DNA of 64,000 bases from an uncultured Clostridia bacterium (GTDB taxonomy: Bacteria > Bacillota > Clostridia > TANB77 > CAG-508): positions 16,459 through 80,458 of the forward strand of contig CALXUC010000003.1 of the NCBI GenBank assembly GCA_944391575.1, read 5' to 3'. This document shows positions 6,687-44,166 of this stretch, one piece after another. The notes beneath the pieces are model-generated. The model did no database searches. It saw only the letters and a list, made by a program, of their open reading frames with translations, and was not told where the DNA came from. The position numbers were made by a program, and so were the translations under genes. Position 1 is the first letter of the stretch. The number at the start of each line of letters is the position of its first letter.

Positions 6687-6726
6687 AAAAAAAGATAAAC
6701 CTAATAATAGATTTATCTTTTCATTT

Positions 6727-7985: not shown

Positions 7986-8014
7986 ATATTACACTTTTTT
8001 ACAAAAAAAGTCAA
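7986..8014 (-). promoter_or_regulatory. candidate sigma-A promoter for the GT2 gene
   Basis: Minus strand reads TTGACT - 17 nt - TAATAT, about 30 nt upstream of the start codon. Confidence 0.35.
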
Positions 8015-8043
8015 GATTTTTAAGAAATTTTTAATAATTTATT

Positions 8044-8196: not shown

Positions 8197-8198
8197 TA

Positions 8199-27584: not shown

Positions 27585-28004
27585 TTATTTACCAGGTGTG
27601 GTTTCTGTAAGTTGTCCGCCACCTGAACTATTTGTGTTTTGATTATCTCCAGCTCCATCAGAACCTGAAGAATTATTATTTCCTTCTGTATTTCCATTTG
27701 TATTTCCAGTACCTTCAGAATAATCTGAGAATGGGTCTATTTTACCTGGATTATACTTATCAGTTTCTTGATATCTATCTAAATCATCTTCTTCTATAGT
27801 GTAAGTTACTAATACTTCTTGTTCTGCTTCATCTTCTAAAGTTTGTTCTAATTCCTCTTCTAATTTCTCTGGTACTGTATATTCAACCTTACCAGGAACT
27901 ACTTTATTAGAAGGTAATTGTTCATAAAAGATTATTCCAAATACTAGTGCTATTAACGCTACTAACAATATATAGATAAAAATTTCTCTTATAACTTTTA
28001 ACAT
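27585..28004 (-). CDS. pilus-cluster membrane-anchored protein, acidic/low-complexity ectodomain
   Basis: 139 aa with one N-terminal TM segment, an E/D-rich segment and a G/N/T/S-rich tail. No family recognised. Confidence 0.35.
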   Translation of the reverse strand: MLKVIREIFIYILLVALIALVFGIIFYEQLPSNKVVPGKVEYTVPEKLEEELEQTLEDEAEQEVLVTYTIEEDDLDRYQETDKYNPGKIDPFSDYSEGTGNTNGNTEGNNNSSGSDGAGDNQNTNSSGGGQLTETTPGK

Positions 28005-28024
28005 AATACATTACCCTCCTTCTT

Positions 28025-28720
28025 TTATTCTTCTACAACATTCGTTGTATTTCCTGTAGTATTTCCAACTGTGTTTTCAACTGTATTTTCAGTAGTTTCT
28101 TCTGTTACATCATTTATTGCTGATGCGGCAACATTTGATATGTTAACATTAATATCTTTAACAGTAAATGTAGATTTTAGATTTGATTTTTCTACATCTG
28201 GTACCATATTAAAATTTTCTATTTTAAATTCTAATTCTGGATCATCTTCTAAATCATATATAAAATCTGTTATTCCTACATAACTACCATTTACAGTAAA
28301 TCTTAAATCTTTTACCTCTGCTATACCGCTAGAACTATTTGTAATTTGCAAATTAACTTTCACATTGTGTTCATCAGCGTAATTTCCTATTGAAATCCAC
28401 AACTTTTCTACTTCATATTTTTCTTTAGTTAATGCTTCTCGTATATCTTCTGTACTGCTTTGTGCTAAAACTCTTTCATATTTTTCTCTTTGAGTTGCAA
28501 CTTCTTCTAAAGCTGTATTTAATTTATCATTTTCTGTATTAAATTCTACTTGAGTTAAGTCAGTTGCTTCCTCTATCTTCATATCTACTTGATCATTTAA
28601 AGTCTGTATTTCTGATACGCCTAAAACTTTAAATTCGCCTATATCAAAGCCATCTCGTATAAAGAAAAATGCTAACACTAAAATTAATATAGCAAGTACT
28701 GCAAATAAAAACTTTCTCAT
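28025..28720 (-). CDS. PilO-like pilus assembly protein
   Basis: 231 aa with an N-terminal TM segment followed by coiled coil. It overlaps the pilM/N stop by 4 nt. Confidence 0.45.
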   Translation of the reverse strand: MRKFLFAVLAILILVLAFFFIRDGFDIGEFKVLGVSEIQTLNDQVDMKIEEATDLTQVEFNTENDKLNTALEEVATQREKYERVLAQSSTEDIREALTKEKYEVEKLWISIGNYADEHNVKVNLQITNSSSGIAEVKDLRFTVNGSYVGITDFIYDLEDDPELEFKIENFNMVPDVEKSNLKSTFTVKDINVNISNVAASAINDVTEETTENTVENTVGNTTGNTTNVVEE

Positions 28721-30369
28721 GGCAATTCTCCTTCTATAGTTACTTTTACAATATTATCCAATTTTACACTACTGTCACTTGATACATTTTTTAATATATT
28801 ATTAGTTTTTAATATAGCTTTAAAATACCCTAAATCATCATAATTTTGTGATTCTGCATTAATTACTATTTTTCCATCAACATTATTCTCTATAGAAGTT
28901 AATTTAACTTCTTTTGGAATAACTGACATTATTCTATTTAATAAAATTGGTATTGCTTTTTTATACTTATTATCTTCAACAACTTGATTTGTAAGACTTT
29001 CTAATTTTGCAATACGTTGTGAATATTCTAAAGATTTGGCTTTAACTGTTTCTGTATTTTCTTGTATAGTTTTAATTTCCTTATTAGTCTCATCTATTAC
29101 TTCATCAGCTTCTGCAATTTTTTTAGTCATTTCACTATTTAAATACACACTTCCAGCTGCAAAAACAGACATACACAATATACCAGTTACACCAACTCTA
29201 ATAGCACTCATTTCAAAAGGCTTTATTGGACCTTTTAATGATAAAGCTGGTTTTAAATCTACTCCACCACCATTTTTAAATCTATTTGCTAATTCTTTAA
29301 AGCTTGGTAATTTAACATCAGAATTTAATTTCATTTGCAATGTTTTAGTAGACATTGTTGTTTTTAAATATGTGTTTTTGAACATTGCTTCTTTATATCT
29401 TTTTTGTAATCCTTGCATTGCAACTGCTACTGCTGAATTCACTTCTATATAATCTTTTATATTTATATTATTAGCAAATTTATCTATAAAAAATGGTGAT
29501 AATATTTCGCATTTATATGTCGGCATATATTCTTGAAAATATAAGTCTATATTATTAATTAAAGCCGCAGAACCAGTAATATAAATTTTTCTAACTGTTA
29601 ATAATTGATTTTCAAATTTATTTTTTACTTCTGATACAATTTTATATAATACTGGCATTATCTCTTTCAAGTATACATTTTCTACTAATTGCATATCACT
29701 AGTTTCCATAGTGTAGATTGTTGTATTTTTACATATCTCGTAAGCTTTTTGTATTGAATTTTCTTTTTCATTTATTTGTTCTATTATGTCTTTCATACCT
29801 AAATTAATAACTTCAATATCATTAATTTCATTATTAACCATAGTAGTTATTTTGGTATCTTCTTCTATATTTACTATTGCGTAATTTTCTTTTTCTTTTT
29901 TTGGCAAATTAGACAATGCTACTGGTAATGGAACTAAATGCCCTACCCTAAAAGCTTGCAATTTTTGCATTTTTGAAGTTATATCAGCTCTTTCAACAGA
30001 TATATATATAGCTTTTGATTTTTCCTTATTCATATAATCTTCCGCCAATATATATCTAGAATCTAATGTTTTGTAACTATACCCTTTTTCATCACACAAT
30101 AATTCAAATTCAGAATTTAACGCTTCTTCTATATCTTTTTTCTTAAGCAAGCTAAATACAGAAAAATAATTATACATTTCCCCTGTTAAATTCATACAAA
30201 TTGGAATATTATGACTATCTGTTTCTTCTAAAATTTCTTTTAAAGCTTTTTCTAGGTCATCATTAAATTTAATTCCAAATGCTTCGATTTTAATATCTTC
30301 TTTTTCAATTCTAACTTTAGCATATTTAATTAAGTTATTTTCCGTTGAAATACCTAAACAAGTCGCCAT
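28717..30369 (-). CDS. pilM: PilM (actin-like ATPase fold) fused to a TM + PilN-like C-terminal region
   Basis: 550 aa. The N-terminal ~330 aa are PilM/FtsA-like, with a TM segment (VTGILCMSVFAAGSVYL) and then coiled coil. It is the first gene of the cluster. Confidence 0.6.
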   Translation of the reverse strand: MATCLGISTENNLIKYAKVRIEKEDIKIEAFGIKFNDDLEKALKEILEETDSHNIPICMNLTGEMYNYFSVFSLLKKKDIEEALNSEFELLCDEKGYSYKTLDSRYILAEDYMNKEKSKAIYISVERADITSKMQKLQAFRVGHLVPLPVALSNLPKKEKENYAIVNIEEDTKITTMVNNEINDIEVINLGMKDIIEQINEKENSIQKAYEICKNTTIYTMETSDMQLVENVYLKEIMPVLYKIVSEVKNKFENQLLTVRKIYITGSAALINNIDLYFQEYMPTYKCEILSPFFIDKFANNINIKDYIEVNSAVAVAMQGLQKRYKEAMFKNTYLKTTMSTKTLQMKLNSDVKLPSFKELANRFKNGGGVDLKPALSLKGPIKPFEMSAIRVGVTGILCMSVFAAGSVYLNSEMTKKIAEADEVIDETNKEIKTIQENTETVKAKSLEYSQRIAKLESLTNQVVEDNKYKKAIPILLNRIMSVIPKEVKLTSIENNVDGKIVINAESQNYDDLGYFKAILKTNNILKNVSSDSSVKLDNIVKVTIEGELP

Positions 30370-30898: not shown

Positions 30899-31348
30899 AT
30901 GAATTTTATGGAAAATAAAATTACTCCTCAAGAGTATGAGGAATATGTAGAAAAGAAATCACCTAATTCGCCTATTTTAAAAAATTGTTTTAATGCTTTT
31001 TGGGTAGGTGGTTTAATTTGTACTATAGGGCAATTTATTTTAGAATATTGCAAATATATCAACTTAGATACACAAATTTCATATACTGTTGTTTCTGTAG
31101 TATTAATATTTTTGAGTGCTTTTTTAACTGCATTAAATATTTTTAATAAAATAGGTAAATTCGCAGGAGCAGGTTCGCTCGTTCCTATTACTGGTTTTGC
31201 TAATTCTATTGTCTCTCCTGCTATGGAGTACAAATCTGAAGGATATGTTTTAGGAGTAGGTGCTAAGATGTTTACTGTAGCGGGTCCGGTTTTGGTGTAT
31301 GGCATTTCTACATCAGTAATTGTTGGAATTATCTATTCATTTTTTTAG
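30899..31348 (+). CDS. spoVAC: stage V sporulation protein AC
   Basis: LKNCFNAFWVGGLICTIGQ and TGFANSIVSPAMEYKSEGY are typical SpoVAC strings. An alternative ATG lies at 30908. Confidence 0.9.
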   Translation: MNFMENKITPQEYEEYVEKKSPNSPILKNCFNAFWVGGLICTIGQFILEYCKYINLDTQISYTVVSVVLIFLSAFLTALNIFNKIGKFAGAGSLVPITGFANSIVSPAMEYKSEGYVLGVGAKMFTVAGPVLVYGISTSVIVGIIYSFF

Positions 31349-31417
31349 ATTTTTTAATTATATATTGTTTGTAAATATAATTAATAATAAATAAAAATAT
31401 TTAAGAAAGGATTTCAT

Positions 31418-32428
31418 ATGAAAAAAATTGGTTCTCAAACTATTCAATTAGAAAATAAAGTATATATTTTAAGTTCTGCATCTATTGTTGGTCCTAAAGA
31501 AAGTGAAGGGCCTCTAGCAAAACACTTTGACTTATGTTTAGATGATGAGTTTTGGGGTGAAAAAACTTGGGAAAAAGCTGAAAGCAAAATTATAAAGGAA
31601 TGTGTAAATATGGTTGTTGCTAAATCTGGTTTAGCTAGCCAAGATATAGATTTATGTTTTGCTGGTGATTTGTTAAACCAATGCATATCTTCTTGCTTTG
31701 GATTACGTTCTTTAAACATCCCATTTATAGGCGTTTTTGGAGCTTGTTCAACTTTTATTGAAGCCATTTCTTTAGGTTCTGTTTTTATTGCTGGTAATGC
31801 TGCTAAAAATGTTGTTTGTGCTACTTCAAGTCACTTTTGTAGTGCTGAAAAACAATTTAGATACCCTTTAGAGTTAGGAAATCAAAGGCCACCTACAGCT
31901 CAATGGACTGTTACTGGTAGTGGCAGTGTTGTTTTATCTACTTCTTGTGATAATAGCCCTTATGTTACTTATGTTACTCCCGGTAAGATTGTAGACATGG
32001 GTATTAAAGATGCTAACAACATGGGAGCTGCAATGGCAATGTCAGCTGTAGATACTATAATAACTCACTTCAAAGATACTGGCAGAACTCCGGATTTTTA
32101 TGATTTAATATTAACTGGAGATTTAGGTTATATAGGTAAAGAAATTGTTATAGAAAATTGTAAAAAAGAAGGATACGACTTATCAAATAATTATAACGAC
32201 TGCGGTGTTTTAATCTTTGATAAGGATAAACAAGATACACATTCTGGCGGTTCCGGTTGTGCATGCATTGCAACAGTTTTTTCTGGATATATCTATAAAT
32301 TATTAAAAGAGAAAGAAATTAAAAAAGTTTTGCTTGTTGCAACAGGTGCATTAACTAATGCAACAACATCTGCTCAAGGTGAAAGTATTCCGGGAATTGC
32401 ACACGCTATTAGTGTAGAGTTTGAATAA
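31418..32428 (+). CDS. spoVAD: stage V sporulation protein AD (thiolase-like fold)
   Basis: 336 aa with SSASIVGPKESEGPL and GACSTFIEA. It sits between spoVAC and spoVAE. Confidence 0.9.
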   Translation: MKKIGSQTIQLENKVYILSSASIVGPKESEGPLAKHFDLCLDDEFWGEKTWEKAESKIIKECVNMVVAKSGLASQDIDLCFAGDLLNQCISSCFGLRSLNIPFIGVFGACSTFIEAISLGSVFIAGNAAKNVVCATSSHFCSAEKQFRYPLELGNQRPPTAQWTVTGSGSVVLSTSCDNSPYVTYVTPGKIVDMGIKDANNMGAAMAMSAVDTIITHFKDTGRTPDFYDLILTGDLGYIGKEIVIENCKKEGYDLSNNYNDCGVLIFDKDKQDTHSGGSGCACIATVFSGYIYKLLKEKEIKKVLLVATGALTNATTSAQGESIPGIAHAISVEFE

Positions 32429-32476
32429 AATATTCTAGTCAAAGTTTGCAATTTAAAGAAAGGATTGATATTAAGA

Positions 32477-32863
32477 ATGGATTTTATAAATAGTATAGAT
32501 TGGTCTTTAGTTTTAAAATGTTTTATTACTGGAGGATTAATGTGTATAATAGGACAAATTTTAATAGATAAAACTAAATTAACTCCCGCTAGAGTTCTTG
32601 TTATATTTGTAACTACAGGAGGTATTTTAGGCGCTCTTGGAATATATCAACATCTAATAGATTTTGCAGGTGCTGGCGCTACCGTTCCTTTAACAGGTTT
32701 TGGTAACTTGCTTGCAAAAGGTGCTATTCAAGAAGTTCAAACTAATGGACTAATAGGTGCATTTATAGGTGGTACTAAAGCAGCAGCTGGTGGTATTGCA
32801 GCAGCAATTTTCTTTGGTTATATTGCTTCACTTATTTCTAAGCCTAAGATTAAAAAGCAATAA
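32477..32863 (+). CDS. spoVAE: stage V sporulation protein AE (AEB type)
   Basis: ITGGLMCIIGQILID, KLTPARVL and PLTGFGN are present. I prefer the ATG at 32477; the ORF track starts at a TTG at 32465. Confidence 0.85.
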   Translation: MDFINSIDWSLVLKCFITGGLMCIIGQILIDKTKLTPARVLVIFVTTGGILGALGIYQHLIDFAGAGATVPLTGFGNLLAKGAIQEVQTNGLIGAFIGGTKAAAGGIAAAIFFGYIASLISKPKIKKQ

Positions 32864-32936: not shown

Positions 32937-33290
32937 TTAAAACTGTCCACGATTGATTTTTTTTATTGTATAATTAGTTGTTGAAAAAGTGTTACACAAA
33001 TATTCTACAACCTTTTCAATATTAATACTTATGTCACATAAAAAAATATCAATAGCAGCATACTGATGTTCTGGCCATGTATGAATTGTAAAATGTGATT
33101 CTTTTAATACCAACACTCCACTAACTCCATATGGCTTGAATTGATGAAAGCAGCTCTTTACTACATTAAAATTACCAATCTTTCCTGCTTTCGTCATTAC
33201 ATCTTTTATTTTAGAAATTGAAATAAGATATTCATCGTTACAGTCGTAAAAATCCAATATGTAATGTACACCCAATATATCATTCATCAT
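32937..33290 (-). CDS. speD: pyruvoyl-dependent S-adenosylmethionine decarboxylase proenzyme (SpeD/SpeH type)
   Basis: 117 aa with GVSGVLVLKESHFTIHTWPEHQYAAIDIFLCD, which carries the E-S self-cleavage site and HTWPE. This closely parallels Bacillus SpeD. Confidence 0.85.
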   Translation of the reverse strand: MMNDILGVHYILDFYDCNDEYLISISKIKDVMTKAGKIGNFNVVKSCFHQFKPYGVSGVLVLKESHFTIHTWPEHQYAAIDIFLCDISINIEKVVEYLCNTFSTTNYTIKKINRGQF

Positions 33291-34368
33291 AATTCTCCTC
33301 CATAATCATTTGAAAATAGTCTACTGAATAATCTCTAAAAAATTTTTTTGGTTCTTCAATCCAGCTTCTTACCTCTTCCCATAATTTATTCATCCCTTGA
33401 ACACCATAATAATTTATAAAGTTATCATAGCTTATAAATGCTTTATTAATATCTTTATATGCATCGTTTTTTAAGTATAAACTTTTTGAAAACTTAGCAC
33501 CTGACCAATCTAATATAACAGGAGCAAAAAGTCTTATAGGGAATTCGTTAAAACCTAATTTTACAAGCCCTTCCGTATGTATTCTTTGTGCCCAAATACC
33601 AGACCAATCACTACCATCCAACATTATTGTTAAAGTATTATTCTTCTTATCTTCTTCTAACATGGCCGCACCTTTAGTTAAATCTCTGAATTGAGTATTT
33701 AAATCCACGTATTCTTTATTACTTTCTGTAACATTTATTTCATATGAACCATGAATTGGGCAATCTCCCTTAAGAAATATCTCATTTTTATTATGTTTTT
33801 CTTTTAATTTTTTTATATTTTTTTTACCAAGTCCACATATTGGGCAGATTGTTCTAACATGCAAATCAGACGAAGATGGAAATAACAGTTTTTTAAAATA
33901 CTCCTTTTCATTTATAATATTTATAAGAGTTCTTCTTACAAATTTATTGCTTTGAAATTCATTATAACTTCTTATATAATATGGAAGATTTGCATAAGTT
34001 GATAAGATTTCTAAAATCTCTTTAAATCGTCTCATATTAGCTAGTTCTTTAGTTTCATGATTATAATAACTATGACGTTGATCTTTATAAAAAATCTCAC
34101 CATTATATTCAACTATTTCTGCTGGACTATTCTCTAATTCATCGAATTGAACTTCAGTTTGCACTTTCAAATCATCTCTAATCTTATTTGCCAGTGCAAA
34201 AGCGGACATAAGTGTTGTTATAGTTCCTAAATGCGGACTGCTATTTGGTTGTGCTGATGTATTTATAATTATCTTTTTTTGATTTCTATACTTATATAAT
34301 ATTAAATCGCTAAGTTTGTTAGTTATATGTGCCATTCCAACTGGTGGATAGAATACTTCTCTTATCAC
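33280..34368 (-). CDS. truncated class-I aminoacyl-tRNA-synthetase-like ligase (catalytic domain only)
   Basis: 362 aa with a HIGH-like NSSPHLGT, a KMSKS-like GAKFSKS and a Zn knuckle CPICG…CPIHG. There is no room for an anticodon-binding domain. GTG start with RBS GGAGGT, overlapping the upstream stop by 1 nt. Confidence 0.5.
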   Translation of the reverse strand: MIREVFYPPVGMAHITNKLSDLILYKYRNQKKIIINTSAQPNSSPHLGTITTLMSAFALANKIRDDLKVQTEVQFDELENSPAEIVEYNGEIFYKDQRHSYYNHETKELANMRRFKEILEILSTYANLPYYIRSYNEFQSNKFVRRTLINIINEKEYFKKLLFPSSSDLHVRTICPICGLGKKNIKKLKEKHNKNEIFLKGDCPIHGSYEINVTESNKEYVDLNTQFRDLTKGAAMLEEDKKNNTLTIMLDGSDWSGIWAQRIHTEGLVKLGFNEFPIRLFAPVILDWSGAKFSKSLYLKNDAYKDINKAFISYDNFINYYGVQGMNKLWEEVRSWIEEPKKFFRDYSVDYFQMIMEENYDE

Positions 34369-35420
34369 TATTTACCTCCATGATATACTACCATAATTTC
34401 TTTTTTAAATACTTCTTTTCCAATTTTAACAAATTTCTTTTCTAATTTATTTTTTTCCCCTTTTGTAAAAGGAATAATCTCATTTATTTCAAAAATTATT
34501 TTATTCCTTCTCAATTTATAATGCCATGTTCCCTTTAATCCATTAGATACTAATATTACACCTTCAACTTGTCCAGCCGCTTTCCAAATTAGTGATTTAT
34601 TATTTCCATTTAATACCCATTCCTTATCTTCATAGCTAATTAAAAGTGGATCAAACTTGCCAAGAATAATTGGATAATTTATTTTTATTTCATTAAAATC
34701 CGGCAATGATTCATAATAATATTTTTTATTATTAATATATATATACTTTGCAGATTTAATATACTCATCTAAGTCCTCTTTGATTTCTTTATATTTTAAT
34801 CCAGACCAATGCAAGAAATCTTGCCTTGTTGCCGGTCCATAATATTTAAAATACCTATAAATCAAATCGGAAATTGGCTTTTTATTGTCTATAATATCAT
34901 TTTGCTTATACAATTTTTTATCTTCTTTGTTAAGAATACCATACAGCACCTTATAATACGTAGCTAAAATTAATAAACCACTCCATTCCATTATCTCTTT
35001 TGATTTGTATTTGGGTATAATATTTTGAATTTCTTTTTTTTCTATCATATTATTTTTATTCTTATCTAAAAATCTGACGATCGAATTTAAATATTCACTA
35101 TAATCTAATTCTAAATGTTTAGCATATTTATATACCCAATTATCACTTTCGCGATATAAATCTGAAATTAGATTATAATCATTTTTATGATATATATGTA
35201 ATGTTGTCCTTTGTCCCCAACTTTTAATTAAATTTGTATCAGTAAAAATATTATTTTTATGCTTTATCCTATTATATATAGATATTAATGCATAAGTTTG
35301 ATATTGGCATTGTATACCAATTAATGATTGAACACATATGTCAGCATTTTCAAACCTATTTAATAGTCCATTATTATACAACCTTAACTTTTGCAAGTCT
35401 AAATTTGAATAATCACTCAT
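34368..35420 (-). CDS. HTH_42 winged-helix protein, AlkZ/YcaQ-family DNA glycosylase-like
   Basis: 350 aa with IGIQCQYQTYALISIYNR (Q37-C38-Q39), WGQRTTLH and YFKYYGPATRQDFLHWSGL. This pattern matches the 'winged helix DNA-binding domain' / YcaQ family. Confidence 0.55.
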   Translation of the reverse strand: MSDYSNLDLQKLRLYNNGLLNRFENADICVQSLIGIQCQYQTYALISIYNRIKHKNNIFTDTNLIKSWGQRTTLHIYHKNDYNLISDLYRESDNWVYKYAKHLELDYSEYLNSIVRFLDKNKNNMIEKKEIQNIIPKYKSKEIMEWSGLLILATYYKVLYGILNKEDKKLYKQNDIIDNKKPISDLIYRYFKYYGPATRQDFLHWSGLKYKEIKEDLDEYIKSAKYIYINNKKYYYESLPDFNEIKINYPIILGKFDPLLISYEDKEWVLNGNNKSLIWKAAGQVEGVILVSNGLKGTWHYKLRRNKIIFEINEIIPFTKGEKNKLEKKFVKIGKEVFKKEIMVVYHGGK

Positions 35421-36108
35421 GTTTTATCGCATATATAAGTACAGAATCATAGTTTTCGTCATTAGCTATTGAGACCTTCTTTACATTTAAAATCTTACAA
35501 TTACGTTTTCTAGCAAAATTTTGCACAATTTTTTCAGATAGATAATTATTATTAAATCCCATTTTTTTACTATATGATGTAGAAAAACACCAATTAGCCC
35601 CTAACAATATTCCATCCTTTTTTAACAAATCATAAAGTTTTTCTAAATTACTTATATATTCCCTTTCATTTTTACATAATCCTAATAATCCAAATTGTGA
35701 GACATTGTTATATTTAATGGTACTATTCATAGATGAGCATAAAACGTCACATATTAAATAATTGATATTTGTCTTAAGAACATCATTAAAATCTTTATTA
35801 TACTTCTTTAACGGATATTCATAGCTTTTGGGGTATATTTCTTTTTTTCTAATCTGTTCATTAATAAAAAAAGCTTCTTTAGAAATATCTACACACAATA
35901 CTTTTTCAATATTTTTAAATGCAATTAACCAAAAATATATATTGCTCCCGCTACCAAAGTCAATTAACGTTCCATTAGAAGAATAATTATTTATTAATTC
36001 TAAAATATCTTCTGTCCCTTGGTCTTCTCTAAATGGTGCACCATAATAATCGTAAAAATATCTTAACTGCTTACTATATTCTTCTTTGTTTATCCTATCA
36101 AAATCCAT
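35413..36108 (-). CDS. class I SAM-dependent methyltransferase-fold protein
   Basis: 231 aa with motif I LIDFGSGSNIYF, then acidic CVDIS. Confidence 0.55.
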   Translation of the reverse strand: MDFDRINKEEYSKQLRYFYDYYGAPFREDQGTEDILELINNYSSNGTLIDFGSGSNIYFWLIAFKNIEKVLCVDISKEAFFINEQIRKKEIYPKSYEYPLKKYNKDFNDVLKTNINYLICDVLCSSMNSTIKYNNVSQFGLLGLCKNEREYISNLEKLYDLLKKDGILLGANWCFSTSYSKKMGFNNNYLSEKIVQNFARKRNCKILNVKKVSIANDENYDSVLIYAIKHE

Positions 36109-36144: not shown

Positions 36145-36906
36145 CTATTCGATATGCTCCTTTCTATTTTTATCAAAAATTCGTTTTAACACAATAATAT
36201 ATGTTCCATTATCATATTCAACTTTTTCTTGTATTAAAAATTTATTACTTTTTTCTATTATTTTTTCGACTAAATTATATTCATAGTTGTATAATCTAAA
36301 ATTTGTTTCAAAAAGAAAATTATCTTTATCAAAGTATCGATACCCAAAATCAATATAATTTTTATGATGTATATGCTTATTGTACCTTTTAATATTTAAC
36401 CCTTTAAATGTAAATCGTTTTGAAAAATAAAATTTATTATCTTCAATTTTTGAATCATAGTATGGCAAAAACTTTCCATAATTAAAATTAAATAAATCTA
36501 AAACAATATATTCTGATACAAGATAACTATTATTTAAAAAAGTTTTAAATTCGGAATAGTTTAAATATTGCATCCCTTGCTCTAAAACAAAAATACAATC
36601 ACATTTAATTTTTAACTTATTAATATCTTTCATATCTTGAACATATGTTTTTACATTTTTTATCTTTCTTCTTTTTTTTTGCTCATTTATAAAATCTATC
36701 ATGTTTTTTTCAATATCTATAAAATATGATTCTTTAAATAACTTTGAATAATCCTCTAAATATAATCCGCTAGCACAAGGACAAAGAACCGCATAATTAA
36801 TATAGTATTTGCTTTTAATTGCTTTTAGTAATTTAATATTCTTCATGTCTTTTTTTACTTCTCTACTATAAAAAGCAGCTCTTTCTTTATATGTTATTTT
36901 CTTCAT
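36145..36906 (-). CDS. divergent class I methyltransferase-fold protein
   Basis: 253 aa with a variant motif I AVLCPCASGLYL, then FIDIE. The assignment is tentative. Confidence 0.35.
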   Translation of the reverse strand: MKKITYKERAAFYSREVKKDMKNIKLLKAIKSKYYINYAVLCPCASGLYLEDYSKLFKESYFIDIEKNMIDFINEQKKRRKIKNVKTYVQDMKDINKLKIKCDCIFVLEQGMQYLNYSEFKTFLNNSYLVSEYIVLDLFNFNYGKFLPYYDSKIEDNKFYFSKRFTFKGLNIKRYNKHIHHKNYIDFGYRYFDKDNFLFETNFRLYNYEYNLVEKIIEKSNKFLIQEKVEYDNGTYIIVLKRIFDKNRKEHIE

Positions 36907-37990
36907 AATAATCCCAATGTTCTTTTATAACTTGATGACAAATTTTACCTTTATCAAATATCCTTCCCCTTATAACTTCATGGCTATTCTTCCCTAATAG
37001 TTCATAATCTAGTATTTTTATTATCCATTCTTTTGCATTTGATGAATATGCTTCAGTCGTTGACTTTGGATAAGCAGACGGAAGGTTATCAATTTTACAG
37101 CATACGATTCCATTATCTGATATATATATCGGATTATCTAAAGTGGTATTTTTATAGATACTTGGTATGTAACCGCTCCCATACCCACAGGTCACATCAA
37201 TTACTACTGTTCCTGGTTTTAGCAAATTAAATATTTCTTTTGTTATAATTGGCTCAGTATCAAATGTTGAAATAAGAATTGCACCAATTATAGCGTCCAT
37301 TTTAGGTAAAATCTCTTTCAAATTTTTTTCAGTTGATTCTATACAATGAATACCTTCATCCATGTAAACACTATTCTTTTTTAACTTATTAATATTACTA
37401 CCAAAAACATAAACGTCATTACCCAGTTTTGAAGCAAGTTTAATTGCTGCTCCACCTACATTCCCATAGCCAATTACTGCAATTTTTGATTTTACACAAC
37501 CACGAATCCCAAACAAGGATTTACCTGCTCCACCATATTGTTTTTGTTGATAAAAATTAGCATACATTACAGCCATTTTCCCAGCAATTTCTCCGCCCGG
37601 ATAAGCCATTGGGAAATATCCGTCATCAGTTTCTATAAATTCATATGTATATGCTGTTACTTTCTTTTTTTGTAATTCTTTTAATAATTCATAGTTTCCT
37701 TCAGCATGAAATATTGCAGCAATTTTGGTATTTTCATTTAAATATTTATACTCGTCTTTTGTTGGGTATTTATATTTTAAAATAAAATCACTATTTTTCC
37801 AACAATATTCTTTATCTTTAATTATTGCTCCATGTTTTTTATATTCATCATCTAAAAAGCCAAGTTCTTTACCTGCACCTTCTTCTACATACACTTCATA
37901 TTTTTTTGTTAATTCGTCAATATCATTTGGTAATAGAATAACTCTATTTTCTCCATTAATTGTTTCCTTTAATATGGCGACTTTTTTCAT
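36887..37990 (-). CDS. alanine dehydrogenase / PNT-family NAD(P) dehydrogenase (AlaDH-, opine- or CEOS-like)
   Basis: ENRVILLP, the Rossmann motif IAVIGYGNVGGAAIKLA, VVIDVTCGYGSG and IDNLPSAYPKSTT are present. The ATG at 37990 has RBS AGGGGTGA and a 4-nt overlap with the upstream stop. Confidence 0.6.
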   Translation of the reverse strand: MKKVAILKETINGENRVILLPNDIDELTKKYEVYVEEGAGKELGFLDDEYKKHGAIIKDKEYCWKNSDFILKYKYPTKDEYKYLNENTKIAAIFHAEGNYELLKELQKKKVTAYTYEFIETDDGYFPMAYPGGEIAGKMAVMYANFYQQKQYGGAGKSLFGIRGCVKSKIAVIGYGNVGGAAIKLASKLGNDVYVFGSNINKLKKNSVYMDEGIHCIESTEKNLKEILPKMDAIIGAILISTFDTEPIITKEIFNLLKPGTVVIDVTCGYGSGYIPSIYKNTTLDNPIYISDNGIVCCKIDNLPSAYPKSTTEAYSSNAKEWIIKILDYELLGKNSHEVIRGRIFDKGKICHQVIKEHWDYYEENNI

Positions 37991-38793
37991 ACTTTCACCC
38001 CTACTATACAAATATATTTTCCTCGATTACACAACTTTTCATCTTGTATATATTGCTTTTCTATATTAAAAATATAATCATAATCATCTGTTAATATTTT
38101 ACTTATTGAATATTTATTTGAAGTCAATGTCTCTTCTACACCAATTAATGAAATAACTGGATAGCCACATTTAAAAATAGATTCAATACCATACTGCTTA
38201 TGAATTCTTTCCAGCTCATCTATCTTATTAAAATGCAATTTAGGAACATATTGTGATAGTGAACCAGTATTATTATTTATTACCAATTTTACTTCACAAG
38301 TGTTTCCTTTTAATATATTTAAAGCCAAGCCATTATAAAAATTTTCACCTACAGAAATTGATATACCACCGCTCTTCAAATATGATGATACAATTTTAAT
38401 TAATTGATCAGCATTACAAAAAAATGGTAATACATATATATTTAAAACAATATCAAACTGCTCATCTAACTTTAAATCATTAATATCAGAGTTAACTATT
38501 TTAACACGTTTTTTGAATTTGCTGAGTTTTTGTTTTGCTTGATTAAGCATATTATCAGAGAAATCAACCAATACGCATCTTGTGTTGTCAAACTCTCGCA
38601 AAATTTTATAAGCCCATTCTCCGGTTCCAGCCCCCAACTCTAAAAATACTATTGGTTTTTCTTTAGGAATATGTTTTTTTATAATTTCCCACAATAAATC
38701 ATCAGCTAATTTCCAATATACTTTTTTGTTATTTTCATCATATTTTGTTGATATATTATCAAAATGCTTTAACACTATTTCTTTCTCACCCAT
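37987..38793 (-). CDS. class I SAM-dependent methyltransferase
   Basis: 268 aa with the clear motif I FLELGAGTGEWA, motif II VLVDFS and FDIVLNIYVL. Confidence 0.75.
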   Translation of the reverse strand: MGEKEIVLKHFDNISTKYDENNKKVYWKLADDLLWEIIKKHIPKEKPIVFLELGAGTGEWAYKILREFDNTRCVLVDFSDNMLNQAKQKLSKFKKRVKIVNSDINDLKLDEQFDIVLNIYVLPFFCNADQLIKIVSSYLKSGGISISVGENFYNGLALNILKGNTCEVKLVINNNTGSLSQYVPKLHFNKIDELERIHKQYGIESIFKCGYPVISLIGVEETLTSNKYSISKILTDDYDYIFNIEKQYIQDEKLCNRGKYICIVGVKV

Positions 38794-38795
38794 AA

Positions 38796-39242
38796 TTAAA
38801 TTCTCTCTCTAGATTCTAAAAAAGATAACAACTCTTTTTTTTTATCTAAACTATAATATGATTGTGGGACAATAAAGTTATGAAACTTTTGCTGTAACTC
38901 GCTTAATTTGACTTCCTTTATTGGAATTATTTTTTCTATAGGAATTGCATATCCTATATTATTATGTAAATATTCCATCATACTATTGTAGCTTTCTGGT
39001 TCTTCTTGTTCTGATATAGTAGCTATAGTCTGTGCGTCACCTATTATTGGTTGTCCAAATCTAATTTTAGCAACTATACTTTTTTTGGTTTTTGAAATAT
39101 AAATATATGCGTCACTCGGTTCTTTTAAATATCTTGTTCTGTATTCGTAATGCTTTTTTCCCTGTATCATTGCATTATAATATTCTTCTCTTAAACTCAT
39201 TAAAACACATTTAGGTTCACAGAATGATAATTGTCTCTCCAT
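38796..39242 (-). CDS. ASCH (PUA-like) domain protein
   Basis: 148 aa. MSLREEYYNAMIQGKKHYEYRTR matches the ASCH N-terminal pattern (xIKxEYxxxIlxGxKxxExR). Confidence 0.5.
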   Translation of the reverse strand: MERQLSFCEPKCVLMSLREEYYNAMIQGKKHYEYRTRYLKEPSDAYIYISKTKKSIVAKIRFGQPIIGDAQTIATISEQEEPESYNSMMEYLHNNIGYAIPIEKIIPIKEVKLSELQQKFHNFIVPQSYYSLDKKKELLSFLESRERI

Positions 39243-39244: not shown

Positions 39245-39847
39245 TTACTCCCTCTCTTCTATTACTTTCTTTTGATTTATTAATTTAATATTTTTTATTA
39301 CAATATCAGCTACTTCTTCTGGTAATAAGGCTTCTGTATCAATTACGATATATTTAAACCCAATATTTTGCAAAAATTTTTCCATCTTCTCATAACCATC
39401 CTTATACATTGCACAATTAGATAAATCTCTATCTTGTTTATCTCTTTCATAAATTCTTTTCATTCTAGTAGAGACACTTGCCTTTAGTAAAACAGTTAAA
39501 TCCGGTACACCACATAATTTTATCAACTCATAATGTAATGGAATTGTTTCTTTATTTCCATGCCAATAATAATTTGAAACAAAATGCCTATCATAAACTA
39601 TGTTCTTTTCTTGATTACATCTTGTTCCATATAATAAGCCCATTCCATAAAATAAAGTCATAAGAGCCTCATCATTTGTCTTGTACAAATTCCATTCTAA
39701 ATCCTTTAATCTAGATTCACTTAAATTTAATCCTTCAAATAAAAACTTAAATGGCTTATCAAGATATTTATATCCTAACTTTTGCGCTAAAATTTTTGAA
39801 ACCGTCGTCTTTCCTGAACCATCCATTCCTTCAATTGCAATTCTCAT
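39245..39847 (-). CDS. thymidylate-kinase-fold P-loop (d)NMP kinase-like protein
   Basis: 200 aa with IAIEGMDGSGKTT (the Tmk-type P-loop), a DRH motif (YDRHFVSNYYW) and a lid-like RMKRIYERDK. Confidence 0.55.
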   Translation of the reverse strand: MRIAIEGMDGSGKTTVSKILAQKLGYKYLDKPFKFLFEGLNLSESRLKDLEWNLYKTNDEALMTLFYGMGLLYGTRCNQEKNIVYDRHFVSNYYWHGNKETIPLHYELIKLCGVPDLTVLLKASVSTRMKRIYERDKQDRDLSNCAMYKDGYEKMEKFLQNIGFKYIVIDTEALLPEEVADIVIKNIKLINQKKVIEERE

Positions 39848-39872: not shown

Positions 39873-40340
39873 TTAATACAATTTTAAATTCCATCTTAAA
39901 TTTTCATCTGTATTTTCGTTATCTTCATATACCATTTCATTAATGTTTGCATCATTAAAGACCTCTAATAATTTATCAAAGTCAGTAGCCAATTTTTTAT
40001 CTTTCAATTCTTCTTCATCAATCCAATATAACTTTCCCTCTGATGTTTCTGAAATTATTTCTCCGCTATAATCATCTGATATAAATAAAATAACTAGTTG
40101 CCTTTCTTTTTCTTTTTTACTATACCAATCTTTTACTCCACATATTCTCACATTATTTAGTTTTAGACCTGTTTCCTCATACACTTCTCTTTTTACAGAG
40201 GGAACAATGCTTTCTCCGCTCTCAATTTTACCTCCAGGAAATGCAATTCCTTGCCAACTTTTTATTCTTTCTTGAACTAGTACTTGTTTTGTTTTAGGAT
40301 TAACTATTTTACACATATTCATTAATTTAATATTTTCCAT
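39873..40340 (-). CDS. NUDIX hydrolase (MutT-like)
   Basis: Nudix box GGKIESGESIVPSVKREVYEETGL. I prefer the ATG at 40340, which has RBS GGAGTGAGG. The ORF track extends to 40361. Confidence 0.8.
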   Translation of the reverse strand: MENIKLMNMCKIVNPKTKQVLVQERIKSWQGIAFPGGKIESGESIVPSVKREVYEETGLKLNNVRICGVKDWYSKKEKERQLVILFISDDYSGEIISETSEGKLYWIDEEELKDKKLATDFDKLLEVFNDANINEMVYEDNENTDENLRWNLKLY

Positions 40341-40441
40341 TACCTCACTCCTCACATACATTTATATCAAAAAGAAATCACAATAAAGGACCTAACTTTT
40401 TAAAATAAATCAAAAAATAACAAATATGATAATTACAATAT

Positions 40442-40470
40442 ATCTTAACATGCTTAACAAATAATGTCAA
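40442..40470 (-). promoter_or_regulatory. candidate sigma-A promoter of the 10-gene operon
   Basis: Minus strand reads TTGACA - 17 nt - TAAGAT, about 100 nt upstream of the Nudix start. Confidence 0.4.
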
Positions 40471-40541: not shown

Positions 40542-40612
40542 AAGTTTGATGATATTTTCACTAATTTTTTAGGGAATAAAAAATACTAGAGTGTGCGAAC
40601 TCTAGTATTTTA
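40542..40612 (+). ncRNA. candidate ~70-nt small RNA (promoter-to-terminator unit)
   Basis: Bounded by the consensus promoter and the hairpin AATACTAGAG/CTCTAGTATT plus TTTT. The only ORF inside is a 7-codon one without an RBS. Confidence 0.25.
40578..40611 (-). terminator. bidirectional terminator after the replication-relaxation gene
   Basis: Stem AATACTAGAG / CTCTAGTATT with an 8-nt loop, an A6 run before and T4 after. It lies 6 nt past the stop at 40617. Confidence 0.65.
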
Positions 40613-40616: not shown

Positions 40617-41555
40617 TTAATTTAAAATCGCTATATCTGGATTTTCTATTTTATATTTTTTAGTTTCTTTATCTAAAACGAATTTAACAAGAGTTTTTCC
40701 TAACTTTTCTGAAATTTGTTTTAAATCTGTTGTAAAGTATAATGGCATATCTTTTATTTCTACTTTATTTACTACGACAGTTTTAAATGTTTCTGCCATA
40801 TGCTTATCATCTTCGCATACAAATATTATAAGTGGTTTTTGTGGGAATCCACCATCCATTGGTACGAAGTTATCATAAAAATCTTGATATAATCTCATTT
40901 TATCTACTAATTTGTTTTGCCAATCTTCTTCTCTTCTTACAACTTCAAATAAAAAGTCTAATTCTTTTTTGTCTCTTTCTAATTTTACACAACCGCCTGT
41001 TACTTTAAATTTTTTCCCCATCATTTTCGCATTTAATGTTGGTTTTGGAGCATAATCTTTGGCTAATCCTACTTTTTCTAAATATGCTATTATAACTTGA
41101 TTTCCAGCTAATCTTTTCTTAAACATTTCTATTGGTTTTGTATTATCAGTTGGTTGCCACTTACATTCTACTTCTTTAGAATTTAATAAGTATTTTCCCA
41201 TTTTTTCCATACAGTAAATTCTAAAAATGCCTTGTCCTTCTTCTGATTCAAAAAAATATCTTGTTAACATTTTTAATTTTACCATTTGTTCTAATTTTGT
41301 ATTTACTCTATCTTGTGTATCTATATCAACATTTTCTATTTTTAGCATTTGAAAAATTTGGCGTGATGTCATAAATTCAAATTTATTAATTAATTCCAAA
41401 ATTTTAAAATGTACATCTGTAATTTGACCATTATTTATTCTAGAAATAATTTGATTTATTGATACAAATCCATCCTTTCCAGCAAATTTTTTTATTTCTC
41501 CTTCTCTCATTGCAAAAGGTGATACTTTTGCTTTAATTTCAGCATCTGTTACCAT
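40617..41555 (-). CDS. replication-relaxation (Replic_Relax) family protein, plasmid/ICE-associated
   Basis: 312 aa. HFKILELINKFEFMTSRQIFQML…KLEQMVKLKMLTRYFF…FRIYCMEKMGKYLL fits the wHTH pattern of that family. Confidence 0.5.
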   Translation of the reverse strand: MVTDAEIKAKVSPFAMREGEIKKFAGKDGFVSINQIISRINNGQITDVHFKILELINKFEFMTSRQIFQMLKIENVDIDTQDRVNTKLEQMVKLKMLTRYFFESEEGQGIFRIYCMEKMGKYLLNSKEVECKWQPTDNTKPIEMFKKRLAGNQVIIAYLEKVGLAKDYAPKPTLNAKMMGKKFKVTGGCVKLERDKKELDFLFEVVRREEDWQNKLVDKMRLYQDFYDNFVPMDGGFPQKPLIIFVCEDDKHMAETFKTVVVNKVEIKDMPLYFTTDLKQISEKLGKTLVKFVLDKETKKYKIENPDIAILN

Positions 41556-41672: not shown

Positions 41673-42401
41673 CTAGTGTTTTTTTATTAATTCTTTCACT
41701 TCTTTTTCAGTTAAAAATCTATATTTCCCTATTTCCAGTGGTTTTACTGCTATATTTCCTATTTTAGTTCTATGCAAAGCTAATACTTTTTTTCCTATTG
41801 CCTCACACATTTTTCGTACTTCCCTATTTTTGCCTTCATGAATTATTATTTCTAATCTAGTTTCATCTTTTTCTAAATCATATTTTATTATTTTTACTTT
41901 TGCTTTTCCTGAAATATAATCTTCTATTTTTACTCCATTTTTTAATTTTTCCACTTCTTCTTGTAATACTTTTCCTCTTAAAGTTACAATATATGTTTTT
42001 TCTATTTCATATTTTGGATGAGTAATTTTATAAATAAAATCACCATCGTTTGTTAATATAATTGCACCTGATGTATACATATCTAATCTTCCTACTGGAA
42101 CTATTCTCTCTTTTATATTTTTCACTAATTCCATTACAGTTGGCCTACCAAATTGTTCTTTTACTGTTGTAACATATCCAATTGGCTTATTTAATAATAC
42201 ATATATTTTCTTACTGCTTACATTTTGTAGCTTTTTACCATTATATTCTACTACATCTTTACTTGGATCTATCTTTATCCCCAATTTATTAACAATTTTG
42301 CCATTTACTTTTACTAAATTATTTAAAATATACTCTTCACATTTTCTTCTTGAATCAATTCCACAGTCTGCCATATATTTTTGTAATCTAACTTCGTTCA
42401 T
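41673..42401 (-). CDS. rluB: rRNA pseudouridine synthase, RsuA/RluB family (S4 domain)
   Basis: RLQKYMADCGIDSRRKCEEYI (S4 domain) and VGRLDMYTSG (catalytic Asp). The ATG at 42401 has RBS GAGG. Confidence 0.85.
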   Translation of the reverse strand: MNEVRLQKYMADCGIDSRRKCEEYILNNLVKVNGKIVNKLGIKIDPSKDVVEYNGKKLQNVSSKKIYVLLNKPIGYVTTVKEQFGRPTVMELVKNIKERIVPVGRLDMYTSGAIILTNDGDFIYKITHPKYEIEKTYIVTLRGKVLQEEVEKLKNGVKIEDYISGKAKVKIIKYDLEKDETRLEIIIHEGKNREVRKMCEAIGKKVLALHRTKIGNIAVKPLEIGKYRFLTEKEVKELIKKH

Positions 42402-42425
42402 ACGATACCTCAATTTATATTTTTA

Positions 42426-42499: not shown

Positions 42500-43405
42500 T
42501 TAAAATCTATCAATTAACTCTAATACATCTTTAAAATATTTTGGTAGTTCCGCTTCTAATTCCATTTTTTTATTTGTAATTGGATGATTAAATTCTAGTT
42601 TCCAAGCATGCAACATTTGCCCCTCTATATTAAATGGATTTTTACCATTCGAATATACCATATCTCCTACTACAGGATATCCAATTTCTGCCATATGTAC
42701 TCTTATTTGATGTGTTCTTCCTGTTTCTATTTTTATTTCTAATAAAGTATACCCATCATATCGTTTTAATACTTTAAAATGTGTTATTGCATTTTTACCA
42801 TTCTTCTTAACAGCCATTTTAGTTCTAACATTATCGCTTCTGCCTATTGGCATATCTATTGTTGCTTCGTTTTCTTTTACAACGCCTCTTACTAATGCTA
42901 AATATGTCTTTTTTATATTATGATTTTTTAAATCTTCGCTTAATTTTATATGTGCTTTATCATTTTTTGCAACGATAATTAATCCAGATGTATCCTTATC
43001 AAGCCTATGTACTATTCCTGGTCGTATCTCACCACCTATACCTGATAAAGAACCTTTGCACCTCTCTAAAACGGCATTTACTAAAGTTCCTTCCAAATTA
43101 CCATTCCCAGGGTGAACTACCATTCCTTTTTCCTTATTTATAACTATTATGTCGTTATCTTCATATACTACATTTAATGGTAATTTTTCAGGTTTTAGCG
43201 TAGTTTCTTTTGGTTCTTCTACTACAACTCTTATAACATCTCCTACATTCACTTTATACGAAGCTTTAACTATTTTTTCATTTACTGTTACATTGCCACT
43301 ATCTATTAATCTCTGTATCATAACTCTTGATAAATCTTTATTCTGTTCACTTAAATATTTATCTAATCTTATTCCTGAATCTTTAGAAATATATTTATAT
43401 TCCAT
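42500..43405 (-). CDS. rluD: RluA-family pseudouridine synthase (RluD-like)
   Basis: 301 aa with an S4 domain, HRLDKDTSGL and GRTHQIRVH. Confidence 0.9.
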   Translation of the reverse strand: MEYKYISKDSGIRLDKYLSEQNKDLSRVMIQRLIDSGNVTVNEKIVKASYKVNVGDVIRVVVEEPKETTLKPEKLPLNVVYEDNDIIVINKEKGMVVHPGNGNLEGTLVNAVLERCKGSLSGIGGEIRPGIVHRLDKDTSGLIIVAKNDKAHIKLSEDLKNHNIKKTYLALVRGVVKENEATIDMPIGRSDNVRTKMAVKKNGKNAITHFKVLKRYDGYTLLEIKIETGRTHQIRVHMAEIGYPVVGDMVYSNGKNPFNIEGQMLHAWKLEFNHPITNKKMELEAELPKYFKDVLELIDRF

Positions 43406-43542: not shown

Positions 43543-44166
43543 TTATTCTTTAGTTAATTCTATAACTTTATGTAGAACTTGTCCGTATTTCCCAATACCT
43601 GTTTCACCTTTGTTTATTAAAAAATCGTTAAAATCTATTTTTTCTTGTTTTGTTACAATTTCATTATTTTCCTTTGTTATAATTTCTGCATCTATCATAC
43701 CTTTTTCGTTTTCCATTAATTTTAAAGCATCTGTTGCTTTTACTTTTACTAAACCTGAAACTTCGCTTTCATCAAAATTTAAATGACTAAAGTCATCATC
43801 AAACTCGTACACAAATACATTAGCAAATGCTCTATCATTAAAAACACTTCCATCAGATTTTATTTTATTCATACTAAATTTTACCACATCTACTAAATTT
43901 GCATTATCATAAAATAAATCTAATCCTATTTCCTCCTTTATTTCTCTTCCAAAAGCTTCTTTTACATCTTCGCCAGCAATTACATGGCCTGAAGCCGTTG
44001 TGTAAAGCTTATTCTCGTCTTTCCTTATTTGAAAATATACATTTCCAGCTTCATCATACAACCAACAATGAACAGTTTTATGCCACAATGCATTTTCATG
44101 AATATTTTTCCTAGTCTCCCTTCCTAAATAATTTAATTTTTCATCATAATAATCTAAATACTCCAT
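43543..44166 (-). CDS. NUDIX hydrolase
   Basis: 207 aa with Nudix box SGHVIAGEDVKEAFGREIKEEIGL. Confidence 0.75.
   Translation of the reverse strand: MEYLDYYDEKLNYLGRETRKNIHENALWHKTVHCWLYDEAGNVYFQIRKDENKLYTTASGHVIAGEDVKEAFGREIKEEIGLDLFYDNANLVDVVKFSMNKIKSDGSVFNDRAFANVFVYEFDDDFSHLNFDESEVSGLVKVKATDALKLMENEKGMIDAEIITKENNEIVTKQEKIDFNDFLINKGETGIGKYGQVLHKVIELTKE

Follow-up and report, generated by a model that had tools for sequence, protein, structure and literature searches.

What does the catalytic domain of a class-I aminoacyl-tRNA synthetase (aaRS) acylate when it comes without a domain for binding the anticodon? This question is raised by a gene, here called T, in a 64,000-nucleotide stretch of DNA from an uncultured Clostridia bacterium (assembly GCA_944391575.1, contig CALXUC010000003.1, positions 16,459 to 80,458), which we refer to as the window and in which coordinates are given unless another locus is named. 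An earlier sequence-only reading had described T as a paralogue of class-I aaRS catalytic domains that lacks the domain for anticodon binding, a description supported here by the fold of the protein, its motifs and its short C-terminal tail. The partnership of T with proteins of the ASCH fold was absent from that reading and is the most informative feature of the gene. Our tentative answer, to which we give somewhat less than an even chance, is that T uses ATP to ligate an amino acid to a non-canonical acceptor, probably a nucleotide or a nucleic acid, which an ASCH partner presents.

The open reading frame (ORF) of T was found exactly where the sequence-only reading had placed it, with 362 codons at 33280–34368, on the minus strand and with a GTG start. 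The first G of this start codon is the last base of the TAG stop codon of the upstream AlkZ-like gene (34368), and GGAGG lies 6 nt upstream of the GTG. At its other end, T overlaps a gene of the S-adenosylmethionine decarboxylase (AdoMetDC) family by 11 nt, the TGA stop codon of T lying within the first codons of the decarboxylase gene, whose start is preceded by GGAGGAG. T is translationally coupled to both of these neighbours. The reading had reported both overlaps, now measured at 1 nt and 11 nt, and its names for the two neighbours also hold (PF06224, AlkZ-like, E = 5e-22; PF02675, AdoMet_dc, E = 7e-37). Among 5.8 billion proteins searched, 167 were homologues of T, most of them spanning 96–100% of the query. 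Since its homologues are numerous and nearly full-length and its motif residues are invariant, T is, judging from this conservation, a real gene under selection.

Conservation was assessed in an alignment of 49 homologues with identities down to 32%. The HIGH-like, KMSKS-like and CPICG…CPIHG elements named in the sequence-only reading all translate at the expected places, and all are invariant or nearly so. The HIGH-like element QPNSSPHLG (residues 40–48; 34225–34251, minus strand) has invariant Q40, P41, N42, P45, H46 and G48 and carries the HIGH signature in the variant form P-H46-L-G48-T; the family-profile alignment places QPNSsPHlGt over PSGYVHVGN, the HIGH segment of the class-I lysyl-tRNA synthetase (LysRS-I) structure 1irx. 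The loop DWSGAKFSKS (residues 287–296; 33481–33510, minus strand) carries the KMSKS signature, with D287, G290, K292, S294, K295 and S296 invariant. Since the HIGH and KMSKS motifs are invariant, the resemblance is not spurious. Between them lies a zinc knuckle, CPICG-x24-CPIH (C175, C178, C203 and H206; 33751–33846, minus strand), in which the three cysteines are invariant and the histidine is kept in at least 90% of the sequences; 16 of the 49 family members gave weak matches to zinc-ribbon Pfam models. In E. coli GluRS and GluQRS, zinc is held by a Cys/His cluster in an insertion that touches the tRNA acceptor end. The CxxC-x24-CxxH element of T presumably lies in the equivalent insertion, which would fit a retained acceptor-nucleotide site.

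Searches of Pfam, NCBIfam and the PDB sequences with the T protein itself returned no match, and its relationship was revealed only by profiles and structure. The best PDB match of the T family profile was 1irx, the LysRS-I of P. horikoshii. PF01921, the Pfam model of LysRS-I, was matched weakly and co-linearly by 20 of the 49 relatives over the stretch from the HIGH element to the zinc knuckle (profile positions 14–208); the best of these matches (residues ~28–199 on profile positions 14–195 of 360) score 26.6–26.9 bits, just below the gathering cut-off of 27. An AlphaFold2 model of T built on the alignment had a predicted local distance difference test (pLDDT) score of 92.6 and a predicted template-modelling score of 0.92. 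A Foldseek search of the PDB with this model again ranked 1irx first (E = 7e-10), followed by GluRS, ArgRS, GlnRS, MetRS and CysRS and by the class-I paralogues BshC (4wbd, rank 24) and GluQRS (4a91, rank 44), with the CysRS and BshC structures ranking below LysRS-I and GluRS. All of the top 50 PDB matches were class-I aaRSs or known paralogues of them, with no non-aaRS nucleotidyltransferase family among them, and the viral structure matches of T were likewise aaRSs. The model and the Foldseek result thus give T the Rossmann-type class-I aaRS fold of the HUP superfamily. The profile and structure check proposed in the sequence-only reading therefore led to LysRS-I 1irx as the closest structure and placed T in no other nucleotidyltransferase family. 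That reading had also called T reminiscent of LysRS and GluRS; of the two, LysRS-I is the nearer relative, as 1irx ranks first and the Pfam GluRS family (PF00749) was matched neither by T nor by any of the 49 members.

The T polypeptide has 362 residues, compared with 523 in 1irx, and stops ~66 residues past the KMSKS-like loop. Since these residues form only short helices in the model, T is, as modelled, without an anticodon-binding domain. T is therefore best described from its predicted structure as a class-I aaRS catalytic-domain paralogue whose nearest lineage is LysRS-I, a remote homologue and not a formal member of PF01921. It shares with LysRS-I the Rossmann-type core, a HIGH-type loop at the equivalent place, a KMSKS-type loop and co-linearity through the zinc-knuckle insertion. 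In contrast to LysRS-I, it has a HIGH variant of its own (QPNSxPHLGT), is only ~15% identical, falls below the model threshold and lacks the anticodon domain, two defining properties of LysRS-I, and is rare, mobile and found in non-translational operons. GluQRS and MshC, which the sequence-only reading had offered as precedents, hold as analogies of architecture and not as kin, given the absence of Pfam matches and the low Foldseek ranks. GluQRS (YadB), a truncated GluRS paralogue that glutamylates queuosine in tRNA-Asp, has the same design, in which the class-I catalytic domain carries a zinc site but is not joined to an anticodon domain; unlike T, it descends from GluRS and works alone, with no ASCH partner. 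MshC and BshC, of mycothiol and bacillithiol synthesis, are likewise derived from class-I aaRSs and place an amino acid on a non-RNA acceptor, but they descend from CysRS, use sugar-amine acceptors, have no ASCH partner and serve housekeeping thiol pathways. Neither T nor the 49 members matched the Pfam TmcAL family, and no TmcAL structure was found in the Foldseek top 50. Because of these missing Pfam matches and low structural ranks, T is not a member of the GluQRS, MshC, BshC or TmcAL families.

Next, ORFs were called and clustered in all 79 T loci. The only partner recurring in every context type was an ASCH-like protein of 140–175 amino acids, and a canonical ASCH protein of 118 amino acids (Pfam ASCH, E = 2e-9) was a frequent second partner. 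In the 63 loci outside the window's own lineage, an ASCH-like ORF was fused to T or lay no more than three genes away in 48, and the same was true of a canonical ASCH ORF in 30. Natural fusions of T occur with both types, with the ASCH-like protein in locus L064 (501 amino acids) and in protein P0300, and with the canonical protein in P0347, whose C-terminus matches Pfam ASCH with E = 1.5e-8. The 118-residue partner, which its size had suggested to be a divergent AdoMetDC, was rejected as such by its Pfam assignment to ASCH; the protein it resembles most is Pyrococcus PH0355 (E = 2.5e-14).

In the window, the ASCH-like partner is encoded at 38796–39242 on the minus strand. Its AlphaFold2 model (pLDDT 92.3) matched the Zymomonas mobilis protein ZmASCH (5guq) in Foldseek with a template-modelling (TM) score of 0.74, E = 6e-10 and 25–26% identity, and its profile matched 5guq with E = 2.8e-7. 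The GxKxxExR octapeptide is present as G-K30-x-x-E33-x-R35, and the residues corresponding to the ZmASCH cleft are invariant in the family (Y48, K54 and Q127) or nearly so (S128). With a predicted PUA-like β-barrel, the octapeptide and the nucleic-acid cleft residues, the protein has, as modelled, the features that characterize the ASCH superfamily. According to the available part of the report on ZmASCH (PMC5615036), its basic cleft binds single-stranded RNA and DNA, and the cleft residues were identified by mutagenesis (Tyr47, Lys53 and Ser128) and by simulation (Gln127). The two proteins are thus alike in fold, length and the Tyr/Lys/Gln/Ser set of the cleft. They differ in that ZmASCH is described as a stand-alone ribonuclease that binds single-stranded RNA, with no synthetase-like associate mentioned in that part of the report (PMC5615036). 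As a separate observation, the ASCH-like protein of the window matched the PADLOC candidate model PDC-M11B.

In the window, ten minus-strand genes follow one another closely from 40361 to 32937 as a translationally coupled operon, in which T has the ninth place. The first encodes a NUDIX hydrolase (39873–40361; PF00293, E = 1e-17) and the second a dTMP-kinase-like P-loop nucleotide kinase (39245–39847; PF02223, E = 2e-16), which also matched the PADLOC models PDC-M51B (a candidate), VakA and pVip-kinase, the latter two for viperin-associated kinases. The ASCH-like gene is followed by a UbiE/CmoM-like S-adenosylmethionine (SAM) methyltransferase, MT-a (37987–38793; Pfam and NCBIfam; found in 16 T loci), and by a divergent NAD(P) oxidoreductase of the alanine dehydrogenase (AlaDH) family (36887–38011; AlaDh_PNT_N and AlaDh_PNT_C), whose TIGR00518 score of 200 bits lies below the equivalog cut-off of 392 and which matched AlaDH structures with E = 6e-48. 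Two further proteins of the methyltransferase type follow, MT-b with a class-I SAM methyltransferase fold (36145–36906; Pfam Methyltransf_25) and MT-c with a methyltransferase fold weakly resembling NNMT/PNMT/TEMT (35413–36108; Pfam). The AlaDH-like protein and MT-b each accompany T in 30 loci and MT-c in 28. All ten genes lie on the minus strand, as does a promoter-like site upstream of them (TTGACA-17-TAAGAT with TG; 40442–40470) that was found by a consensus scan only; in this AT-rich region, such sites are no more frequent than in shuffled sequences.

The eighth gene (34368–35420) encodes a protein of the AlkZ-like (AZL) HTH_42 type that weakly matched AlkZ (5uuj). It has the family motif (Q/H)-Φ-Q as Q37-C-Q39 and is a predicted glycosylase; Q-x-Q is kept in most cluster copies, and two copies have H-A-A. 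The tenth gene (32937–33290), found in 25 T loci, encodes a pyruvoyl-dependent decarboxylase of the AdoMetDC/SpeD family that scored 124 bits against TIGR03330, above the equivalog cut-off of 75.65. Apart from the overlap in the window, a link between T and the decarboxylase is also seen in a natural T–AdoMet_dc fusion, P0253. SpeD homologues neofunctionalized to decarboxylate ornithine or arginine exist, as described in a study that does not cover the gene context of T (PMC10407285). Since such neofunctionalization is known and no spermidine synthase was found in the operon, the substrate of the decarboxylase may be SAM, ornithine or arginine. The AlkZ-like protein and the decarboxylase accompany T in 25–26 loci, and the loci that share these companions of T come from Bacilli, Clostridia, a Patescibacterium, an alphaproteobacterium, Burkholderiaceae and Pseudoalteromonas.

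We then examined how widely T is distributed. An exhaustive HMMER search of 1.84 billion representatives yielded ~550 T clusters at 50% identity (E ≤ 1e-3), from bacteria, archaea, phages and basidiomycete fungi, in which the named members are annotated as hypothetical. A scan of 185,579 species with one genome each yielded 120 relatives. These include gut Bacilli, with the closest relatives of the window's T (~80% identical, Firmicutes bacterium CAG:822 among them), as well as Thermoactinomycetaceae, Christensenella, other Clostridia, Streptococcus, bacteria of the Candidate Phyla Radiation (CPR), DPANN archaea and a few Proteobacteria. The fungal proteins (P0288 from Jaapia, P0332 from Lentinus and P0325 from Fistulina) contain a full-length T within longer proteins with low-complexity inserts and share an additional conserved N-terminal motif, HDGxVHHPLGxGSY. 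In another variant, P0100 (485 amino acids), the C-terminal two-thirds of T are preceded by a fused GDSL/SGNH-type esterase domain, an arrangement that hints at an acyl-transfer or hydrolysis activity in the partner domain.

T is also mobile. In Pseudoalteromonas sp. S4498 (locus L084, PNCO02000001.1), a six-gene core of AlaDH-like protein, two methyltransferases, T, ASCH-like and AlkZ-like protein is the complete cargo of a Tn7-like transposon, flanked by TnsA, TnsB and TniB at one end and by two TniQ/TnsD genes at the other end. Other copies adjoin a Mu-type transposase with IstB, an IS200-type transposase or large serine recombinases, or lie on plasmids (in Pantoea, Macrococcoides, Streptomyces and others). 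The temperate Streptomyces phages Picard and Mojorita carry a T homologue annotated as "tRNA synthetase" (hhalign probability 100%, E = 1.9e-41) that keeps PHIGT and GAKLSKS. In Picard, this gene is followed by a canonical ASCH gene annotated as "RNA binding protein", directly beside the integrase; Picard gp27 was considered as an ASCH-like partner and rejected (hhalign probability 3%). Since T is rare, patchily distributed and mobile, it is, judging from its occurrence, probably not a housekeeping gene. In the window, a gene of the Replication-relaxation family (40617–41555, minus strand; PF13814, E = 2.3e-7) lies directly upstream of the operon. As this family is typical of plasmids and integrative elements, its presence suggests that the operon sits in a putative remnant of a mobile element. 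The flanks of the operon vary between closely related genomes. That the whole T set travels as mobile-element cargo points to a part in conflicts between genomes.

The minimal and most widespread unit is T with one or two ASCH proteins, as found in DPANN, CPR, Mollicutes-like gut Bacilli and a phage. These minimal cassettes contained no tailoring enzymes or exporter, and their flanks were heterogeneous, with none conserved. Other T loci add nucleotide enzymes (nucleoside 2-deoxyribosyltransferase-like and MazG-like proteins, a pyruvate-kinase barrel, P-loop kinases, a LOG-like TIGR00730 protein with a HAM1-type pyrophosphatase, and a dCTP-deaminase-family gene) or tailoring enzymes (ATP-grasp ligases, a BpsA-type aminopropyltransferase, radical SAM enzymes and DegT-type aminotransferases), and some carry genes for a PHP phosphatase and an APH-like kinase. 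Exporters were found beside T as well, of the ATP-binding cassette (ABC) type in L029, L041–L043, L048, L049 and L055, of the drug/metabolite transporter (DMT) type in Pantoea and of the major facilitator superfamily (MFS) type in Macrococcoides.

Three of these locus types have features of their own. L041–L043 (Streptococcus infantis, S. pneumoniae and a metagenome-assembled genome) are a distinct type in which T and an ASCH-like protein are joined by two ABC exporters, two ATP-grasp ligases, an uncharacterised protein of 179 amino acids and the BpsA-type aminopropyltransferase, an assembly that looks like a polyamine-conjugate pathway. In L089, the T–ASCH fusion P0300 adjoins a large dCTP-deaminase-family gene (DCD_N/DCD/DCD_C; the two genes lie at 6501–7667 and 8001–9470), and a radical-SAM/PqqD pair lies nearby. 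The dCTP-deaminase enzyme type is known from phage defence by nucleotide depletion. In L026–L028 (Christensenella and relatives), the ASCH–T cluster directly follows a pair, recognised by eye as AAA-ATPase and RloB-like, of a kind characteristic of defence islands.

The tentatively proposed ligase would work as follows. As a stand-alone and catalytically competent domain, T would bind ATP through its HIGH-like and KMSKS-like loops and form an acyl-adenylate from a carboxylate. Its substrate would most likely be an α-amino acid, which might be long or basic or might be a derivative supplied by the enzymes encoded next to T; an amino acid is favoured because of the linkage to the decarboxylase and the dehydrogenase and the descent from LysRS. 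T would then transfer the acyl group to an acceptor other than an anticodon-selected tRNA. That T probably acylates a non-standard acceptor follows from its lack of an anticodon domain and its travelling with ASCH proteins. Recognition of the acceptor would fall to the ASCH/PUA-fold protein beside T or fused to it, here that of 38796–39242, and the acceptor would most likely be an amine of a nucleobase or a hydroxyl of a ribose, in a nucleotide, RNA or DNA; the choice of a nucleotide or nucleic acid comes from the single-stranded nucleic-acid cleft residues that the partner shares with ZmASCH. The ten-gene set would build an aminoacyl or polyamine-like adduct and modify it through decarboxylation, methylation and either reduction or amination, and the other enzymes of the operon may police the nucleotide pool and DNA.

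A chemical precedent exists in the pair of TmcAL and ASCH proteins, which combines adenylate-dependent N4-acylation of cytidine with ASCH amidohydrolases. TmcAL uses ATP and acetate to form N4-acetylcytidine (ac4C) on tRNA, and a 2026 preprint reports that diverse ASCH proteins, Pyrococcus ones included, hydrolyse ac4C and erase it from tRNA. The B. subtilis TmcAL resembles the proposed T in being a class-I aaRS-like adenylate former that acylates a nucleobase amine, with ASCH proteins reversing such marks; it differs from T in using acetate and in having no detectable tie to it in sequence or among the top 50 structures. In a bolder form of the ligase proposal, which we consider doubtful, T and ASCH would be the writer and the reader/eraser of a new N- or O-aminoacyl mark on a nucleobase or nucleotide (e.g. 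N4-aminoacyl-cytidine), the ten-gene set would decarboxylate, reduce and methylate the residue into a cationic hypermodification, and the whole would serve mobile elements as a weapon or shield in phage–host or inter-bacterial conflict. If this were true, T would be the first aaRS paralogue descended from LysRS-I to act outside translation.

We found no description of the T family or of its association with ASCH in the literature. A 2022 review of aaRS duplications lists LysRS paralogues for class II only, and a 2016 survey of aaRS paralogues has essentially none for class-I LysRS; neither mentions the T family. Since the 2022 review lists only class-II paralogues, a family derived from LysRS-I would open a new branch and bring in a partner of a new kind. 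Truncated aaRS paralogues (GluQRS, MshC, BshC and TmcAL, and also the cyclodipeptide synthases) have each exposed unexpected chemistry. The T family is broad, and its coupling or fusion to ASCH supplies a hypothesis at a time when the biology of ASCH proteins, as RNA binders and erasers of N4-acylcytidine, is only now emerging. Its carriage on mobile elements and in abundant human-gut Bacilli may point to a new nucleic-acid modification, or to a bioactive nucleotide or genotoxin, of importance for phage defence or gut ecology. T thus has a realistic chance of leading to a new nucleic-acid or nucleotide modification, and with 2–10 genes the system is small and directly testable.

Several observations weigh against the ligase with an ASCH-presented nucleotide or nucleic-acid acceptor. 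About 15 of 77 loci have no recognisable ASCH-like partner, several of these being truncated contigs or having a canonical ASCH protein instead, and no ASCH neighbour or gene cluster was seen around the basidiomycete genes. The 2026 preprint found ZmASCH inactive on the ac4C nucleoside and cellular ac4C not lowered by it; because ZmASCH did not hydrolyse ac4C, the ASCH-like partner may bind rather than catalyse. No tRNA genes or known RNA families were found near the operon. Neither T nor the 49 relatives gave a significant match to the defence models of PADLOC-DB v2, so T cannot be assigned to a known defence system. We infer from homology the adenylation chemistry, the amino-acid substrate and the nucleic-acid or nucleotide acceptor; the biological role is a proposal. 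Finally, the exporters and small-molecule tailoring enzymes are explained at least equally well by a diffusible natural product as by a nucleic-acid modification.

This last point leads to the alternative, possible though on the unlikely side, that T is an MshC-like amide or ester ligase placing an amino acid on a free metabolite (for instance an aminonucleoside, decarboxylated SAM or a polyamine that the adjacent decarboxylase produces), and that the product is exported as a nucleoside-type antibiotic or DNA-reactive genotoxin against which the ASCH, AlkZ-like, NUDIX, MazG and HAM1 proteins protect the producer instead of taking part in substrate recognition. AZL proteins with the motif (Q/H)-Φ-Q typically are self-resistance glycosylases in clusters for DNA-alkylating natural products (PMC9040887), and the motif is kept here; the three exporter classes beside T in several locus types, the radical-SAM, DegT-type, PHP phosphatase, APH-like kinase, ATP-grasp and BpsA-type genes elsewhere, and the recurrent enzymes sanitising the nucleoside triphosphate pool all agree with this picture, and the fusion of T to the decarboxylase fits production of an amine followed by its acylation. 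However, the minimal widespread unit consists of T and ASCH without tailoring enzymes or exporter, T–ASCH fusions would be unexpected if ASCH were a resistance protein, and the window operon contains no transporter. It is improbable that T is instead a functional analogue of TmcAL that adenylates acetate or another simple carboxylate without an amino group and uses it to N-acylate cytidine of tRNA or rRNA, with ASCH as reader and eraser. TmcAL shows that a class-I aaRS-like enzyme can make N4-acylcytidine from ATP and a carboxylate, and many ASCH proteins, including Pyrococcus relatives of the 118-residue type, remove ac4C from nucleosides or tRNA; against this stand the missing TmcAL matches in Pfam and in the Foldseek top 50, a nearest relative that activates lysine, and the pointer to amino-acid chemistry given by the accompanying pyruvoyl amino-acid decarboxylase and amino-acid dehydrogenase.

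Two further explanations keep closer to, or depart altogether from, aaRS function. T could be the catalytic half of a split canonical lysyl-tRNA synthetase to which ASCH supplies tRNA binding in trans, as the LysRS-I fold, the single-stranded RNA binding expected of the ASCH partner by homology and the frequency of the family in reduced genomes would allow. We judge this very improbable, because a family so rare and patchy (120 relatives in 185,579 species), carried on phage, plasmids and transposons, below the threshold of the LysRS-I model and sharing its operons with genes that have no part in translation (decarboxylase, methyltransferase and glycosylase) does not behave like one. The least probable account is that T is a catalytically dead scaffold or that its motif likeness is coincidental; it draws on the failure of T itself to match Pfam, NCBIfam or PDB sequences, but the His and Gly of the HIGH-like element, both KMSKS lysines and the zinc-knuckle cysteines are invariant in bacteria and archaea, the phage member keeps the motifs, and the fold match to class-I aaRSs is unambiguous.

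The surroundings of the operon yielded some minor observations. A perfect 13-bp inverted repeat (AAAATACTAGAGT...ACTCTAGTATTTT) at 40580–40611, between the Replication-relaxation gene and the promoter region of the operon, may act as a terminator in both directions or mark the boundary of an element. Farther upstream lie two S4-domain pseudouridine-synthase-like genes (41673–42413 and 42500–43405, minus strand; assigned by eye), a second NUDIX gene (43543–44166, minus strand; Pfam) and a signal-peptidase-II-like gene (44171–44614, minus strand; by eye), which look like an ordinary housekeeping flank. On the other side, a spoVAC/spoVAD/spoVAEB operon (30899–32863, plus strand; Pfam) points towards the T operon, and the facing ends of the two, at 32863 and 32937, are only 73 nt apart; the presence of this sporulation operon marks the host as a spore-forming member of the Bacillota. 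Beyond it, a 550-codon ORF without a Pfam match (28717–30369, minus strand) lies upstream of two small low-complexity ORFs rich in Asn, Thr and Gly (27585–28720), and these ORFs together may represent a pilus or competence assembly module.

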